The notes under the pieces: generated by a model
The model's database searches: none
Told to the model about the DNA's origin: nothing
Seen by the model: only the letters and a program-made list of their open reading frames with translations
Translations under genes and position numbers: made by a program
Part shown: piece after piece, positions 28,485-45,187 of the stretch
How the letters are laid out: the number at the start of each line of letters is the position of its first letter
Numbering within the stretch: the stretch's first letter is position 1
NCBI GenBank assembly: GCA_000004695.1
Contig: CM000152.2
Location: 640,001 to 704,000, forward strand
DNA from: Dictyostelium discoideum
Taxonomy: Eukaryota
Length of the DNA stretch: 64,000 nucleotides
Reading direction: 5' to 3'

Positions 28485-28520
<36 letters not shown>

Positions 28521-33735: not shown

Positions 33736-35487
33736 ATGTTAAAAAAATCATTATTTATTTATTTATTTATTTTTTTTAATTTTATAATTAAAATAACGAC
33801 AGCAGCAACAAGTGTAACATATTATGTTAGTGTTAATAATGGTAATGATAATATACCATGTGGAGAGAGTTTAGAAAAGTCATGTCAATCAATTCAATAT
33901 GTATTTAATCAATATAATTCAACCTATTTAAATAGTCAAGATATTATTGAAGTTATGATATTATTAGATGATGGTGAATATATTGGTGAAAATAATGTGA
34001 ATTTTAATATTTACAATATGACAATCACTATTCAACCAATTAATAATTCAAAAACACCGTCACCAGTAACATTCAATGGTATTAACAGTGCCGGTGATAG
34101 AGTTTTTAATATCACTGAACCATATTTAATTAAAACCAATGAAACAACGATTCAATATGGCATAAATTCAACATCATTAACATTAAATAATTTAAATTTC
34201 ATTAATTTCAATCCAACTATTGGTAATGGTAATGGTACCATTGGAAATGGTGCAATCATATTCATTGATATATTCAACTCATCATTATCTTTATCAATTA
34301 ATAAATGTAATTTTAATAATAATCAAGGTAATAAAGGTGGTGTGATTTATATGGAGTCTGAATTTTATAGTGATGGCAATAACCTTGTTGAAATTAGTAT
34401 AAAGAGTTCACAATTTACAAATAACAATGCAACTATATCAGGTGGTGTTGCTTATTTGGATGGATTTAATGATATTTATATTGACACTTGTTTATTTGAT
34501 AATTCATATTCACCAGTGTCTGGTACCTCAACATTATTCATATCAAATGGTGAATTTATTGAAATTAGAAGATCAAATTTCACAAGAAATCAAATTGCAT
34601 CAACTGTTGAATTATTTGGAATTCAATATAAGAATGGATCAATGGTAAAGGATTGCTTGTTTGATGGTAATGTTGTCAATGGTAAAGGTGGTGCAATTTC
34701 AATGTACCTAAGTTGGTTATCTGTTGATGGCACATTATTTAATAATAACTATGCTGGTGCAATTGGTGGTGCGATCTTTGCTACTGGCGTATCAAGTTAT
34801 TTACTTGTTGCAAATTCAAAATTCATTGATAATAAATCAAGTGGTGCTGGTGGCGCTATTGCAACTCAAGGTAGTGTTTACACGAGTTTAAACAATTGTG
34901 AATTCATTTCAAATTCTGCAAATGCCGGTGGTTCATTATCTTTTGAATATTCAAATCAAATTCATTTAAGAAATTGTACAATCAGTGGAAATGTTGGTGT
35001 TGGTCAAGGTGGTGCAATCTATTCATCCTATTCAACGATTTCAATGGATGATACTAAAATTAGTGCCAATCAAGCTTACCAAGGTGGTGCTGTCTATTGC
35101 TCCGCTTCAACTTTAAATATTACCAGTTCAAATATCCCATTGAATGGTAATACCGATCTTGGCAATGGTACAGACTCTTATGAATGGAAAGGTGAGGATG
35201 GTATAAAAGTCAATGATTATGGTATTTATTGTGCTCTAACTCCAACCTATACCTATTGTACTGTCAATGGTGATACACCTTATAGTAAACTTTGCGGTGA
35301 ATCCGATGTCACTGAACTTTCAGGTTTAACAGCTGGTCAAATCGCTGGTATTGTCATTGGTTGTACTATTGGTGCTGGTATTTTAGCTTTTGGTTTAGCC
35401 TGGGTTATCTCAAAAACAACTATTAAAGAACATTTCATTAGACTAAGAAGCTCTTCAACTTCTAATACATCTTATTCACTAAATTAA
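33736..35487 (+). CDS. secreted/type-I membrane protein with right-handed beta-helix repeats of the Chlamydia polymorphic-membrane-protein (GGA[IV] / FxxN) type
   Basis: I take the start at the ATG giving MLKKSLFIYLFIFFNFIIKITTAAT (signal), downstream of the poly-F leader in the ORF track. The repeats are FTNNNATISGGVAYLD, GKGGAISMY, GGAIFATG, FIDNKSSGAGGAIATQG, FISNSANAGGSLSF, ISGNVGVGQGGAIYSSY and ISANQAYQGGAVYCS. A C-terminal TM helix IAGIVIGCTIGAGILAFGLAWVI is followed by a short tail. Confidence 0.7.
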   Translation: MLKKSLFIYLFIFFNFIIKITTAATSVTYYVSVNNGNDNIPCGESLEKSCQSIQYVFNQYNSTYLNSQDIIEVMILLDDGEYIGENNVNFNIYNMTITIQPINNSKTPSPVTFNGINSAGDRVFNITEPYLIKTNETTIQYGINSTSLTLNNLNFINFNPTIGNGNGTIGNGAIIFIDIFNSSLSLSINKCNFNNNQGNKGGVIYMESEFYSDGNNLVEISIKSSQFTNNNATISGGVAYLDGFNDIYIDTCLFDNSYSPVSGTSTLFISNGEFIEIRRSNFTRNQIASTVELFGIQYKNGSMVKDCLFDGNVVNGKGGAISMYLSWLSVDGTLFNNNYAGAIGGAIFATGVSSYLLVANSKFIDNKSSGAGGAIATQGSVYTSLNNCEFISNSANAGGSLSFEYSNQIHLRNCTISGNVGVGQGGAIYSSYSTISMDDTKISANQAYQGGAVYCSASTLNITSSNIPLNGNTDLGNGTDSYEWKGEDGIKVNDYGIYCALTPTYTYCTVNGDTPYSKLCGESDVTELSGLTAGQIAGIVIGCTIGAGILAFGLAWVISKTTIKEHFIRLRSSSTSNTSYSLN

Positions 35488-36728: not shown

Positions 36729-39700
36729 ATGAAGAAATATAATTTTTTATTTTTAATTTTTATTTTAATACATATATCACAAAAAACTTATTCCCAATCA
36801 AGTAAGTGGAAAAAAAAAAATAAAAAAAAAATAAAAAAAAATAAAAAATAATAATAATCAACCAACAAATTTTTTTATTTTAAAATTAAGCTATTAAATT
36901 GAGTTTTTTGGTGTACGATCACACTCCATCAAGAAATCCAGATTTCGAAGCTGCAAATAGTGGAAGGGTTGAAAAGGGTTTAGTAAAAACAGATTTAGGA
37001 GCTGATGGAACACCAGTTTATTGTTGTGGCAGAACCAAGAAAGCATCAATAACAAGTGAAACAACTTTTTATTCTTGGTTTCATAATAAACCTGGTACAA
37101 ATTTACCAATTAATAAAGAAATTACATTGACTCAAAGTACAACAAATCCAAACATTTATTCTTATACCAATGGATCATTTTTTATTATTGACGGAGAAGG
37201 TTTTGATGATAAAGTAATTTTTTTAAATTTATAATATTTTTATTTATAAAATTTAATTTTAATTTTAATTTTTTTTTTTTTTTTTAATTATTAAAATGAT
37301 AAAAAGACAAAATATCCCAACGAAAAGTTATATTATGATCCTGCTAAAAAAGCAAGAAATTTTCATTATTGTATGTAAATCTTATTTTCATTTGAAAAAA
37401 AAAAAAGCTAATAACATTCAATTCAATAGGTGCTCAGGCTCATACACAATTCCAATATAAAACAGGTGATATTTTTTCATTTACTGTATGTTAAAATAAT
37501 TTTTTAAACAAAAATTTATAAATTTAATATTAAATATTTTAAAAAACAATTTAAAGGGCGACGACGATGTTTGGGTTTTTATAAATAATAAACTTGCTGT
37601 TGATTTAGGTGGAATGCATCCACTCTTCATCATCAATTAATCTAGATCAATTAGGGTTGACAAATGGCGCAAATTATAACTTTGATTTTTTTTATTGTGA
37701 AAGACACACTGATGGCTCAACAATACAAATTACAACATCATTAAAATTTGTTTGTCCGTAAGTTTTAGATTTTAAATTAACAAAATAAGAGAAAAAGAAA
37801 AAAAAACAAAAATTAATAAAGTATAATTTAATTATTAGATTTTATGATGGATGTGGAGTTTGCCAAGGTGATAACTCAAGTTGTTGTTTGCCAAGTAATT
37901 GTGACCAAAATCCAAAATATACTGCAAGTTGCCTCCAAGCAAAATGTGTTAATGGTCTTTGCAATGTTCCAGTAACTAGTTGTTCATCTGCAACTCCTTG
38001 TTTTGACAGCGTTTGTACACCATTTGTTGGATGTTCATTGGTACCAAAAAATTGTTCATCTGCCGACTATTGTAGATTGGATTACTGCAATCCAACCATT
38101 AATGCTTGTCAACATGATCCTATTCCTGATTGTATTAGTGTAAATATTTTTTAAATTTTTTAAAAAAAAAATTTTAAAAATTATATAGATTTTAATTTAT
38201 CATTTTATAGTGTTCAAATATAGGTTGTTTAACAACAGATAAATGCTTCCCAAAATCGTATGTTCATTAATGATTTTATTTTAATTTTTAAAAAAGCTAA
38301 AAGTGCTCTAACTTTGATTATATTTTTTATAACCTTCTAAAATATAGATGCAGTCCAGATGGAAAAAGTTGCATTACCAATACAAAATCATGTGATGATA
38401 ATAACCCTTGCACTACAGATACTGTAATATTATATTAAAAATAATTATATTTTTTATTTATTTATTAATTTTAGTTAACCATTTTCCCCCTAAATCACAG
38501 TGTTCAAATGGTAATTGCTTTTACCAAATTATTCCAGATTGTATAAATTGTGGTGGTAACCAATGTTTCAATACTGATAAATGTAATCCAACATCGTAAG
38601 TAAAACAATTTATTTTTGTTTATATTTAATTATCTGGATAATTAACAATATAAAAAATTAAATTATAGATGCGCTTCTGATGGTAAATCATGTGCTCAAG
38701 TCCATGTACTTTGTGATGATCAAAATCACTGTACAGATGATAGTGTATGTAAATAATTGTATTGCTTTTTTTTTTTCTTTTTTTTTGGACATGTGGAAAA
38801 TAAAAAAATCACACCCCACATTCCAACAACTTTGTTAACAAAATTTTTTATTTTCCTCAACTTACAATTTAAAAAATAAATAAATAATTTATAGTGTTCA
38901 AATGGATATTGTATTTCAAATCCTATACCAAATTGTATTGATTGTCCAGACACTGCTTGTATAACAACAGATTTTTGTAATGTTCAAGTGTAGGTTTAAA
39001 ATTAATCTAAAAAATTTAATTAACCAAATTATTAACAATACAAATGATTTTTATTATATTTTATACTAAATAGATGTAGCCCAGATGGAAAAAGTTGTGT
39101 TTCATCTCCAAAAAATTGTAATGATACCAGTTTTTGTACTATTGATAGGTAAATACAAATATTTTATTTGTTTAAAATTTAAAATTTGGATTTTCTAATT
39201 TTAATTATTTATATTTATTAGTTGTAATTCACCAAATGGAACGTGTTCACATTCATTTCCAGATCCTAAATGTGTATCTTGTGCATCCACATCATGTACT
39301 ACAACTGATGATTGCTTAGTTCAAGTTTGTAGTGATGATGGAGCCAGTTGTAATTCAATACCAAAAAATTGTGATGACAAAAACCCTTGTACACAAGATA
39401 GGTAAATATATTTTTATTTCATTAAAATAAAAACAAAAAGAATCAAAATTTTCAATTTTTTAATTATTATTTTAAATAAATAGTTGCTCAAATAATGGAG
39501 TTTGTGCATACACTCCCATTCCAAATTGTTCAATTTGTAACAGTACTTTCGGCTGCATTACCACCGATTTATGTCAACCAATGGTTTGTACAGATCCAGA
39601 TCTTAAATGTGAGATAGATCAAACTCTATGTAATGATGATAACTTTTGTACCACTGATAGTTGCTCAGGAAATGGTATTTGTGCACACACTCCTGTTGAT

Positions 39701-42700
39701 AGTTGTTTAACCTGTTCAAAAAATATTGGTTGTATTACTGTAGATAAATGTAATCCTCAGATGTATGTAATCATTATACCACTAATTAAAATAAATTTAA
39801 TTTTCCATCCCAATTAACTTTTTTTTTAAAAAAAAAAGCTGTTCAAATGATAATAAATCATGTATCACCGGAGATAATGGGTGTGATAAAGGTGATAAAT
39901 GTTCAATAGCTTCATGTGAATCGCCAGCAGGTAATTGTAAATCAACTCCAGTAGTTTGTGATGATAATGATCCTTGTACAATTGATAGGTAAATATAATT
40001 ATTAATAAAATATCATGATTTTAATTATAAACCTCTAACATCCTCTTTTAATTATTTTAATAGTTGTAACCCAGCAGATGGAACTTGTGTACATCAAGAT
40101 ATTAATAACTGTGCTGAATGTGGTAAACTTGGATGTATTACAAGCAATCCTTGTCAGCCAGTTTCTTGTTCAATCACTGGCACAGAATGTAATAAAACAA
40201 AAATTTCATGCGATGATAAAAATCATTGCACTCAAGATGCGTAAGTAAAAAAAAAAGAAAAAAAAACTTGTTAAAAGATAAACTATATTAATATTTTAAA
40301 ATAATTCTTTTTTTAGATGTTCGATAAAAGATGGCTCTTGTTATCATGCAACAATTAATAATTGTATTGATTGCGCAAATCAAGCGTGTATTGTAAGTTT
40401 AAAAACATTTTTTGATAATATGTTTTTAAAAAATACTAATTACTATTTAAATTTGGAACAATAGACATTTGACGCTTGTAAACCAAAAAAATGTGGAGCT
40501 GATGGTAATTGCTATGAAGATCCAGTAACCTGCGATGATGGAAATGGGTGTACAATTGATAGTTGTTCAAGAAATGGTACTTGTTCAAACAAATTAATTG
40601 AAAACTGTGTTAGTTGTAATAGTAGTTTTAATTGTATAACAACCGATTTTTGTGATCCACAAATTTGTTCAGGTGACCCATTAAATCTTAGCTGTATTAA
40701 AAATATGTCAATGTGTGATGATGGAAATTATTGCACAACGGATATATGTTCTGGTAATGGAGTTTGCTCTCACTCATCACCCGATCCTTTATGTAGATCA
40801 TGTAAATCAACAAACTGTACAACAACTGATTTATGTCAACTTCAAATATGTAGTGCGGATGGTAGTGGTTGTGAAACTGATCAAAAAGGTCTTTGTGATG
40901 ATAAAGGTAAAATACAATTATATTCAATTTTAATTCAATTAATTCTAATTCAAATTCTTTTTTTTTTTTTTTAGATCCATGTACAACCGATCTTTGTGAT
41001 AAAGGAGTTTGTACTCACCCAAAAATTACTGATTGTATGGCATGTAATGAAACATTTGCTTGTATTGTAAGTTTTTTAATAATATTTGAAAAAAGTATTA
41101 CTATTACTAATTATTTTTAAAATTATAATTATGATATAGACAACAGTATTTTGTGAATATCAGATATGTAGTAGTGATAAAACCCATTGTATTCAAACAG
41201 AAAGAAATTGTGATGATCAAAATGAATGCAGTACTGATTTTTGTCAAAGTAAATATTAATATATGTTTATTTTTACTATTTTATAATTTTTAATTTTAAA
41301 ATCTAATTTTATAAAATTCTTTTTTAGACGATCAATGTTCTCATTATTTTCCTAAAGATTGTTTCTTGTGTGGAAATCAAACCTGCCATGATTATGACAT
41401 ATGCTACCCAGCCTATTGTGATATCAGCACTTCCACTTGTGCCAACACTACTTTGACTTGTGACGATAAGGACCCATGTACAAAAGATATTTGTTTTTCA
41501 GGAACGGGTTGTGGATTTGTAACTATAGATAGGTGTACAAAATGTAATGAAACTGTAGCATGCATTGAAAAGGATTTATGTAAATCATTGCAATGTCCTG
41601 CCGATGGGTCTGATGAATGTATTTCCTCTGATAAGAATTGTGATGATGGTAATCCATGTACATATTCAGAGTGTGATCCTGAAACTGGTTCATGTATAGA
41701 TTCATTCATTGAAGGTTGTTCACTTTGTTCAAAGCCAGGTGTATATTGTTATTCACAAGATAAATGTTCACCATTAATTTGTAATGATGCTGGAGATGGT
41801 TGTGTTCAAATAAGTCCAAATTGTTCAGATCACCAACGTTGTACGAATGATACTTGCTCAGATGGCCACTGTATAAATACTCCAATCGAAAATTGTATGG
41901 AATGTATTAAAAATTTTCAACCAGTTTTTTCATTCATGGATGTTTCATTATTCTCGGATAATCCCTCAAATGATTCTTTTGGCTGCTACTCCTCAGATAA
42001 ATGCGTTCATGTTGACTGTTTAACTGATCATAGCTGCAATTATACTAAAATCGTATGTGAACCAGACAATTCATGTCATGATAGTTATTGTGATCAAGGA
42101 ATTTGTTATTCTATACCAAAAGAAAATTGTGAAGTTTGCTCAAAAACTTTATATTGTATAACTGATAACCCATGTGAGCCTAGTGTCTGTTCAGATAATA
42201 AAGATTCATGTATCACCAAACCTTTAAATTGTGATGATGATGATAGTTGTACAATAGATTCTTGTAGTCCTGATACCAATTGTACTCATACCCGTATTGC
42301 AGGTTGTCGAGCAGTTCCAACAACAACTGGAATAGCACCTCACACTCACTATTGTGACTATTGTCATGATACTGAAATATGTATTCTAATTGGTGATGTT
42401 CCTACTTGTGTACCAACATCAACAACATCATCAATACCATTAACAACAGTAACAACAGATATTGAATTAGTTGTTACATCTGGTATATATTCCACTGGCC
42501 ATTTCACTGAAAGTGGAACCACTTTTGGAGATAAACCCAGTACAACCACGTCAGAATTAGTATCAACAACCTCCTCTACACCTCCTTATTACAATCTTTG
42601 CGATAGAGTAAGATGCGGTAAAGGTTTAGAATGTTATATGATTGATAATAAACCTGAATGTCTACCATCAAATTACCAATGTATGGACTGTTGGGATTTA

Positions 42701-42811
42701 CTTTGTCATCTTCAAGATTTATCTTGTAAAATGGTTTTAAATCCCCATTTCATTACTGATAAATATGGTCAAGTTTGTTGTAAATTCATACCAACGTGCA
42801 TACCAAGATAA
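36729..42811 (+). CDS. psi/PA14-family-like secreted protein: signal peptide, PA14 domain, >25 cysteine-rich ~25-aa repeats (Dictyostelium prestalk/psi CTDC-like), S/T-rich stalk, Cys-rich C-terminus; ~21 exons; apparent frameshift in PA14 exon (possible pseudogene)
   Basis: Exon 1 is MKKYNFLFLIFILIHISQKTYSQS. The PA14 exons read ...YDHTPSRNPDFEAANSGRVEKGLVKTDLGADGTPVYCCGRTKK...FFIIDGEGFDDK | TKYPNEKLYYDPAKKARNFHY | CAQAHTQFQYKTGDIFSFT | GDDDVWVFINNKLAVDLGG / ECIHSSSSINLDQLGLTNGANYNFDFFYCERHTDGSTIQITTSLKFVCP. The repeat exons then follow the pattern CS(P/N)DGKSCxxxxKxCDDxNxCTxD | CSNGxCxxxxIPxCxxCxxxxCxTxDxCNP. They are split by 65-100 nt introns with GTAAGT/GTATGT/GTAAAT donors at recurring phase-2 / phase-0 positions. 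The terminal exon (about 41328-42811) is the 481-aa ORF. Confidence 0.7.
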
Positions 42812-43078
42812 ATTAAATTCTAAAACTATAGAAATGCATAATTAGGAGAAAAAAAAAAAAAAATTTTGAAAAAAATAAAAAAAAATTGGATAAAAAATGA
42901 CAACATCTGCTATAAATAAAAAATTAAAAATAAACATTACAAAAAAAAAAAAATTTATTATTTTTTATAATACCAACACTGACTCAACAAAGATATTTTT
43001 TTTTTTTTTTTTTTGATTGTTTTTTCATTTTCACTTGCCCAATTTTTTTTTTTTTTTTTTTTTTTTAATTTTACAAAA

Positions 43079-45187
<2,109 letters not shown>

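Follow-up and report, generated by a model that had tools for sequence, protein, structure and literature searches.

How can a gene whose exons otherwise appear undamaged carry a single conserved protein domain in two different reading frames? The question is raised by a psi-like gene of Dictyostelium discoideum, located in a stretch of 64,000 nucleotides (contig CM000152.2 of assembly GCA_000004695.1, positions 640,001 to 704,000 of the forward strand; here called the window and numbered from its first letter), in which the reading of a PA14 domain changes frame inside one exon. The cause could be a mutation in the organism, a fault in the sequence, or a message that the cell itself puts right. 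The answer favored here, with a probability of about 0.9, is a real 2-base-pair deletion, which has very recently turned the gene for a large secreted PA14/CTDC protein into a null allele specific to the AX4/AX2 lineage. Psi-like is used as an architectural label, not as a statement of orthology. Three features are needed at the outset.

37557..37757, + strand: exon 5, the exon of the frame change, 201 nucleotides long (203 in intact alleles), defined by translation and alignments
37620..37626, + strand: the deletion site, CCA C TCT where intact alleles have CCA CCC TCT, from a DNA alignment with loci L002-L007 (described below) and a protein alignment
37638..37640, + strand: the premature TAA in the original frame, which is the first stop (codon 200) and leaves a predicted product of 199 residues

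Exon 5 is bounded by an AG acceptor at 37555-56 and a GTAAGT donor that begins at 37758. One of its frames encodes GDDDVWVFINNKLAVDLGGMHP, and the +1 frame encodes SSSSINLDQLGL...KFVCP. A three-frame translation of 37540-37790 confirms two statements of a preliminary description of this DNA, namely that the conserved reading switches frame within the exon and that frame 0 (positions divisible by 3) runs into the TAA at 37638-37640. Up to that stop, frame 0 reads GDDDVWVFINNKLAVDLGGMHPLFIIN; the frame one base on reads (VECIH)SSSSINLDQLGLTNGANYNFDFFYCERHTDGSTIQITTSLKFVCP. The point of change needs correction. Frame 0 had been taken as genuine to about 37611, and it is in fact genuine through 37622 (GGMHP), while the 'ECIH' that was thought to open the second reading is GGMHP read out of frame and not real protein. 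Every exon downstream of exon 5 is open and continues the frame of the shifted half, and the earlier statement to that effect is borne out by the exon model.

What is missing at the junction can be read from other copies of the locus. The neighboring gene at 33736-35484, a single exon, is 100% identical to XP_642282.1 of D. discoideum AX4, and the same gene is present on CM142509.1 of GCA_054883475.1 (locus L001). Over 20 kilobases (kb) L001 is 99.6% identical to the window, with differences that are nearly all in the lengths of intergenic poly-A/T tracts and simple repeats; the two sequences of exon 5 are exactly identical. L001 is of the same strain lineage as the window, but its sequence was generated independently. 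De novo Nanopore plus Illumina assemblies have been described for AX2-214 and for the wild D. discoideum isolates CR116C and OT3A, and the same BioProject includes M4B and S6B, possible cryptic sister species, as well as other species (PMC12745789). Among the listed strains only AX2-214 should nearly match AX4, and L001 (locus-tag prefix ACTFIT) therefore very probably comes from it. The poly(A) of about 108 nucleotides at 44272-44380 of the window corresponds in L001 to about 30 A and, after them, a long repeat of (GAAAA)n, and the intergenic homopolymers of the window (e.g., at 28485, 31964 and 36616) are consistently longer than those of L001.

The 90% protein cluster of L001 contains 1492-residue proteins from D. 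discoideum (ACTFIW and ACTFIR) and a 1494-residue protein from 'cf. discoideum' (ACTFIZ). Their loci, L002 and L004 for the two D. discoideum genomes and L003 for the 'cf. discoideum' one, project onto the same 21 exons as the gene in the window, have 1492, 1494 and 1492 open codons (L002, L003 and L004), and match proteins P0122-P0124. L005 is the syntenic locus of a second 'cf. discoideum'. L006 (SRR26869258) and L007 (SRR28564541), two contigs whose read sets are independent, share one sequence that covers 37261-42881 of the window at 98.9% identity, its frame open from exon 3 through to the stop. Homology searches with the N- or C-terminal region missed the near-identical cluster P0121-P0125, which was found by exact look-up of a 1477-residue model; a homology search that lacks a close match here does not imply that an orthologue is absent.

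At the site in question, the window and L001 read CATCCA--CTCTTC in the nucleotide alignment. L002, L004 and L005 read CATCCACCCTCTTC, L003 reads CATCCTCCTGCTTC, and L006 and L007 carry CCACCC. Both bases are retained in five other alleles, two from wild D. discoideum, two from 'cf. discoideum' and one shared by L006 and L007, and the CC is the only length difference at exon 5 between the window and the intact alleles. Of the second proline codon only the C at 37623 is left. The proteins agree: P0122, P0123 and P0124 show ...GGMHPPSSSS... at this position, and the intact orthologues read ...DLG[G/N]MHPP[S/A]SSSVNLDQLGL... in one frame.

More distant relatives point to the same repair. In a family alignment of psiA, psiB, proteins of D. 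purpureum and P. violaceum, and a bacterial fibro-slime protein, the glycine and histidine of the GGxH motif (G58 and H61) are invariant; in the window their codons lie in frame 0, 3' of the run ggtgga. From the invariant histidine to the V/I-x-L-D motif there are six residues in every member, and a 2-nucleotide repair is favored because no other restores this spacing. Repair by one nucleotide, tried at three positions, also gives an open frame of 1489 residues, with a PA14 core one residue short of every relative. No second PA14 copy that might have served as a paralogous template occurs within the 64-kb window.

The rest of the gene can be described with the following features.

36729..42811, + strand: the whole psi-like gene, from the exon model and matching the gene call in GCA_054883475.1
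36729..36801, + strand: exon 1, with the hydrophobic N-terminal leader MKKYNFLFLIFILIHISQKTYSQ, a presumed signal peptide (translation)
37157..37866, + strand: the PA14/fibro-slime domain region in exons 2-6, residues 114-249 of the repaired protein (PF07691, TIGR02148)
37839..42808, + strand: exons 6-21, Cys-rich Dicty_CTDC repeats and C-terminal domain, open but untranslated in this allele (PF00526, open frame)

The exon model was built by hand from the conserved repeat pattern and GT/AG sites and then checked by script. It has 21 exons on the + strand, from an ATG at 36729 to a stop at 42809-42811, the same ATG and stop that the gene call of GCA_054883475.1 uses. The window is very AT-rich, with a guanine plus cytosine (GC) content of 14-33% and short, AT-rich introns, and all 20 introns of the gene are GT..AG, 59-150 nucleotides long and 3-21% GC. 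The raw coding sequence is 4471 nucleotides, a multiple of three plus one. With the CC restored it specifies 1490 codons whose sole stop is terminal, and the frame change in exon 5 is the only lesion, with no further stop or splice defect in the exon model. A similar N-terminal leader is found in all aligned family members; its function as a signal peptide is presumed from the translation rather than from a predictor. Exon 7 (38211-38257) holds one Cys-rich repeat unit, CSNIGCLTTDKCFPKS, far shorter than its siblings of about 32 residues. This is an old in-frame contraction common to other D. discoideum alleles and is no lesion.

Domain profiles place the repaired protein clearly. PA14 (PF07691) gives 49.8 bits against a cut-off of 24, with positions 7-145 of the 147 in the profile aligned, and the fibro-slime profile TIGR02148 gives 132 bits (cut-off 45), residues 149-236 aligning with positions 2-89 of 90. 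Dicty_CTDC (PF00526), a profile of Cys-rich 24-residue repeats, is matched in 10 stretches with 90.5 bits (cut-off 27). The single TIGR02148 match runs across the lesion and covers both halves, far more than chance would produce, and the earlier view that both are genuine PA14 sequence stands.

The preliminary description attributed the change to the loss of one nucleotide in the ggtgga run, and gave an assembly or sequencing error in a G-run as one possible source. The loss of one nucleotide is hardly conceivable. Only the approximate position of the frame change fits it. To pass into frame +1 after frame 0, a sequence must have gained one base or lost two, whereas the loss of one would have shifted the downstream frame to -1. 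The ggtgga run and the ATG CAT that follows are the same in the intact L005 and L006, and the family's invariant Gly and His come from GGA ATG CAT read in frame 0; the bases were lost some 10 nucleotides further 3', in CCA CCC. Alignment with the five other alleles has exactly two bases missing, the CC alone differing in length across exon 5, and alignment with related psi genes, a check that the preliminary description had suggested, also supports a loss of two nucleotides and not one. As for an error, by which the AX4 genome would truly read CCACCC and the gene would be intact, the deleted lineage is represented by only two assemblies, and the reference is an old Sanger sequence of very AT-rich DNA. 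However, the site is not a homopolymer: the runs in exon 5 (T8, T5, A4 and G3) are all elsewhere, the longest, T8 and T5, lying away from it, and a 2-base-pair loss is atypical of base-calling errors. The de novo Nanopore plus Illumina assembly with L001 (PMC12745789) has many homopolymer-length differences from the window, hence comes from different data, and still has an identical exon 5. Because the site is non-homopolymeric and two independently produced assemblies agree, sequencing error is unlikely and the lesion is taken as real in the organism; that an intact AX4 gene has been misread, in sequencing or in assembly, is put at a very low probability.

Two further explanations accept the deletion and let the cell, or the annotation, get past it. 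The first of these depends on one more feature.

37609..37645, + strand: an artificial 37-nucleotide 'intron', GT..AG, 38% GC, whose removal takes out GGMH-SSSSINL (12 residues); it matches KAM9948825.1

When 37609-37645 is removed from the model, the result is a protein of 1477 residues that is exactly KAM9948825.1 (ACTFIT_010025) by exact look-up; the difference between 1489 and 1477, 12 residues, is equivalent to the 37 nucleotides of GT(37609)...AG(37645). A tiny intron that gives one frame throughout was what the preliminary description named as grounds for abandoning the frameshift, and only this annotated segment fits. If it were genuine and spliced, the lineage would make a 1477-residue protein lacking 12 residues. 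The segment does start with GT and end with AG, its removal restores the frame, it is the only frame-fixing GT..AG inside exon 5, and a deposited annotation uses it. Its 37 nucleotides and 38% GC are nevertheless far from the 59-150 nucleotides and 3-21% GC of the gene's 20 introns, and its donor is GTGGAA where theirs are GTAAGT, GTATGT or GTAAAT. In intact alleles the segment is 39 nucleotides long, is kept by their annotations, and is translated, including the invariant Gly and His of the domain. Atypical in length, composition and donor, and coding elsewhere, it is judged an artifact, and its being a true intron is highly improbable. It looks like a device by which a gene predictor keeps a reading frame open, and the AX2-type annotation steps over the lesion by means of it. 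Similar predictor 'repairs' may hide other lesions in the AX2-type proteome. The other explanation keeps the gene functional, with the frame recovered through programmed +1 ribosomal frameshifting or through RNA editing by insertion. The perfect preservation of the 1290 downstream codons speaks for it, but the lesion is so young (synonymous divergence, dS, of 0.007 to the nearest intact haplotype) that such preservation needs no other explanation. A programmed frameshift would be expected as a conserved frame change, and every other allele, including the one that differs by about 1%, is in one frame at the site; the separate shift of L005 lies 3' of it. The stretch from the CCA at 37620 to the TAA contains no known +1 arrangement of slippery and slow codons. 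Rescue of this kind has almost no probability.

A 2-base-pair deletion with loss of the product is thus the reading that we retain, and its predicted course is simple. Two C's of CCA CCC (Pro-Pro) in exon 5 have been deleted in the NC4-derived lineage (AX4/AX2). Translation would then leave the ancestral frame after ...DLGGMHP, read LFIIN, and stop at the TAA at 37638-40. The predicted product of 199 residues consists of 172 codons from exons 1-4 and 27 from exon 5; it retains PA14 profile positions 7-88 of 147 (26.3 bits), and no Dicty_CTDC repeat is translated. It would lack the last approximately 40% of the PA14 domain, all of the repeats and the C-terminal region, and the mRNA may also undergo nonsense-mediated decay. 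Skipping of exon 5 does not rescue the frame, since exon 4 ends in phase 0 and exon 6 begins with the third base of a codon, and a product of downstream re-initiation would be without the signal leader. Set against orthologues with 1492-1494 open codons (L002-L004) and the open frame of L006 and L007, a stop at codon 200 is a disabling lesion. The proposal of a young pseudogene or a null allele specific to a strain lineage, made in the preliminary description, is supported by the intact exons here and the intact alleles elsewhere.

Several points weigh against this reading. The identity of L001 with AX2-214 is deduced from the strain list and the near-identity to AX4, not read from the record, and both the loss of function and nonsense-mediated decay are predicted from sequence. 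Exact look-ups, meant to reveal transcripts or further read sets (Logan contigs) with the deleted allele, of the truncated 199-residue spliced open reading frame (ORF), of the last-exon ORF of the window haplotype, and of a 50-codon ORF unique to the deleted allele each returned no record, negatives that are uninformative.

The deletion is very recent. It is the sole lesion in 4.47 kb of coding sequence, and a haplotype about 1% different is intact. Over 1358 codons, 12 substitutions separate the window allele from L006, the nearest intact haplotype; 6 are synonymous and 6 non-synonymous (dS 0.0074), too small a number for relaxed constraint to be detected. Since L006 and L007, about 1% different, keep the intact codon, the deletion is younger than that haplotype split. 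AX2 and AX4 were derived separately from NC4, and the deletion was therefore most probably already present in NC4, before they separated. AX4 and AX2 have been treated as one lineage (PMC12745789).

Constraint can be gauged among the intact alleles. Their ratio of non-synonymous to synonymous divergence (dN/dS) is 0.36-0.49 at a dS of 0.04-0.23, against 0.09-0.20 at a dS of 0.10-0.16 for the neighboring gene. The psi-like gene is constrained, but 2-4 times less strongly than its neighbor. Between the AX4-lineage allele and the CR116C/OT3A-type alleles (L002 and L004) the dS is about 0.12 in the psi-like gene and about 0.10 in the neighboring one. A dS of about 0.12 is large for conspecific isolates and fits the description of these tropical D. 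discoideum isolates as genetically diverged (PMC12745789).

Relatives of the window allele look damaged as well, in other ways. One further feature is involved.

37686..37693, + strand: a T8 run in exon 5, T7 in L005 (alignment; L005:13943-14144)

L005 (GCA_054859205.1, ACTFIY), from a possible cryptic sister species, has an intact CCACCC, and its T7 in place of T8, where all other alleles have T8, gives an uncompensated -1 shift after ...NYDFDFF. Its repeat region is also shorter by about 165 codons, and the annotated L005 model, of 1283 residues, contains no PA14 domain. Either the gene has been inactivated independently here, or the T7 is a Nanopore error in a homopolymer. In D. citrinum (GCA_054859325.1, L011:6721-11291) the syntenic interval, between a pectin-lyase-like gene and a UVB_sens_prot gene, is about 4.6 kb compared with 7.3 kb in the window. 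Only residues of approximately 70-132 and 1315-1490 of the psi-like protein are detectable there, the annotated models being 107 and 190 residues long, and most of the orthologue has been deleted in this sister species. Taken together, the NC4-lineage deletion, L005 and D. citrinum suggest that the gene has been lost repeatedly, while elsewhere in the species complex it appears to be functional but weakly constrained.

These losses can be read more ambitiously. The gene might be a recurrently lost, presence/absence-polymorphic PA14/CTDC member whose loss is favored or balanced rather than merely tolerated, in settings such as social or developmental signaling or interactions with microbes. We consider this doubtful. 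If it were true, strains in standard laboratory use would be naturally knocked out for a developmental signaling or matrix protein.

The more modest reading, a young null allele in the AX4/AX2 lineage, has its own uses. AX4, and very probably AX2, would have no functional version of a large secreted PA14/CTDC gene still intact in wild isolates, and experiments on the PA14/CTDC family in laboratory strains would be carried out in a natural null background for this member. Comparative studies based on the proteome with KAM9948825.1 would overlook the loss and take over a PA14 core with 12 residues missing. A literature search on psi pseudogenes found nothing specific to this locus. The case, a young null allele, is an ordinary one with little general interest and no bearing on a long-standing open question; it offers a clean, dated example of the loss of a member from a variable family, which is useful for Dictyostelium annotation and strain biology.

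The nearest known system is the psi family itself (PsiA, the prespore-cell-inducing factor; psiB-psiR). PsiA, a secreted glycoprotein, promotes prespore differentiation, and proteins with PA14 and Dicty_CTDC domains form variable, lineage-amplified families that are secreted or exposed (PMC11574339; PMC4931340). Prespore-inducing activity is known only for PsiA (PMC11574339), and the group-4 psiA clade comprises about 15 PA14 genes. The gene in the window has the same architecture, a leader followed by the PA14/fibro-slime region and then by CGVCxGDNSxCC and Dicty_CTDC repeats, and has in common with the family the PA14 motif GDDDVWVFIN...DLGGxH...FDFFYCERH. It differs in being about three times longer (1490 residues compared with about 550), with many more repeats, and in being a frameshifted null allele in this lineage. 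Its N-terminal part is about 41% identical to psiA and psiB of AX4 and 47-53% identical to its best matches in P. violaceum and D. purpureum, and by such pairwise similarity alone the gene may fall outside the group-4 psiA clade, on a separate and older branch.

Bacterial fibro-slime proteins (TIGR02148) have the same invariant residues and spacing, and many are 38-49% identical over the domain. They are without Dicty_CTDC repeats and often have a PEP-CTERM-type end (PF07589), whereas the gene here is an intron-rich eukaryotic one. In genetic terms the closest parallel is with segregating loss-of-function alleles and young unitary pseudogenes. As in those, one small frameshifting indel and an early stop interrupt a gene that is otherwise pristine, and intact alleles within the species are accompanied by independent loss in relatives. 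The only special point is that the carrier in this case is the universal laboratory and reference lineage.

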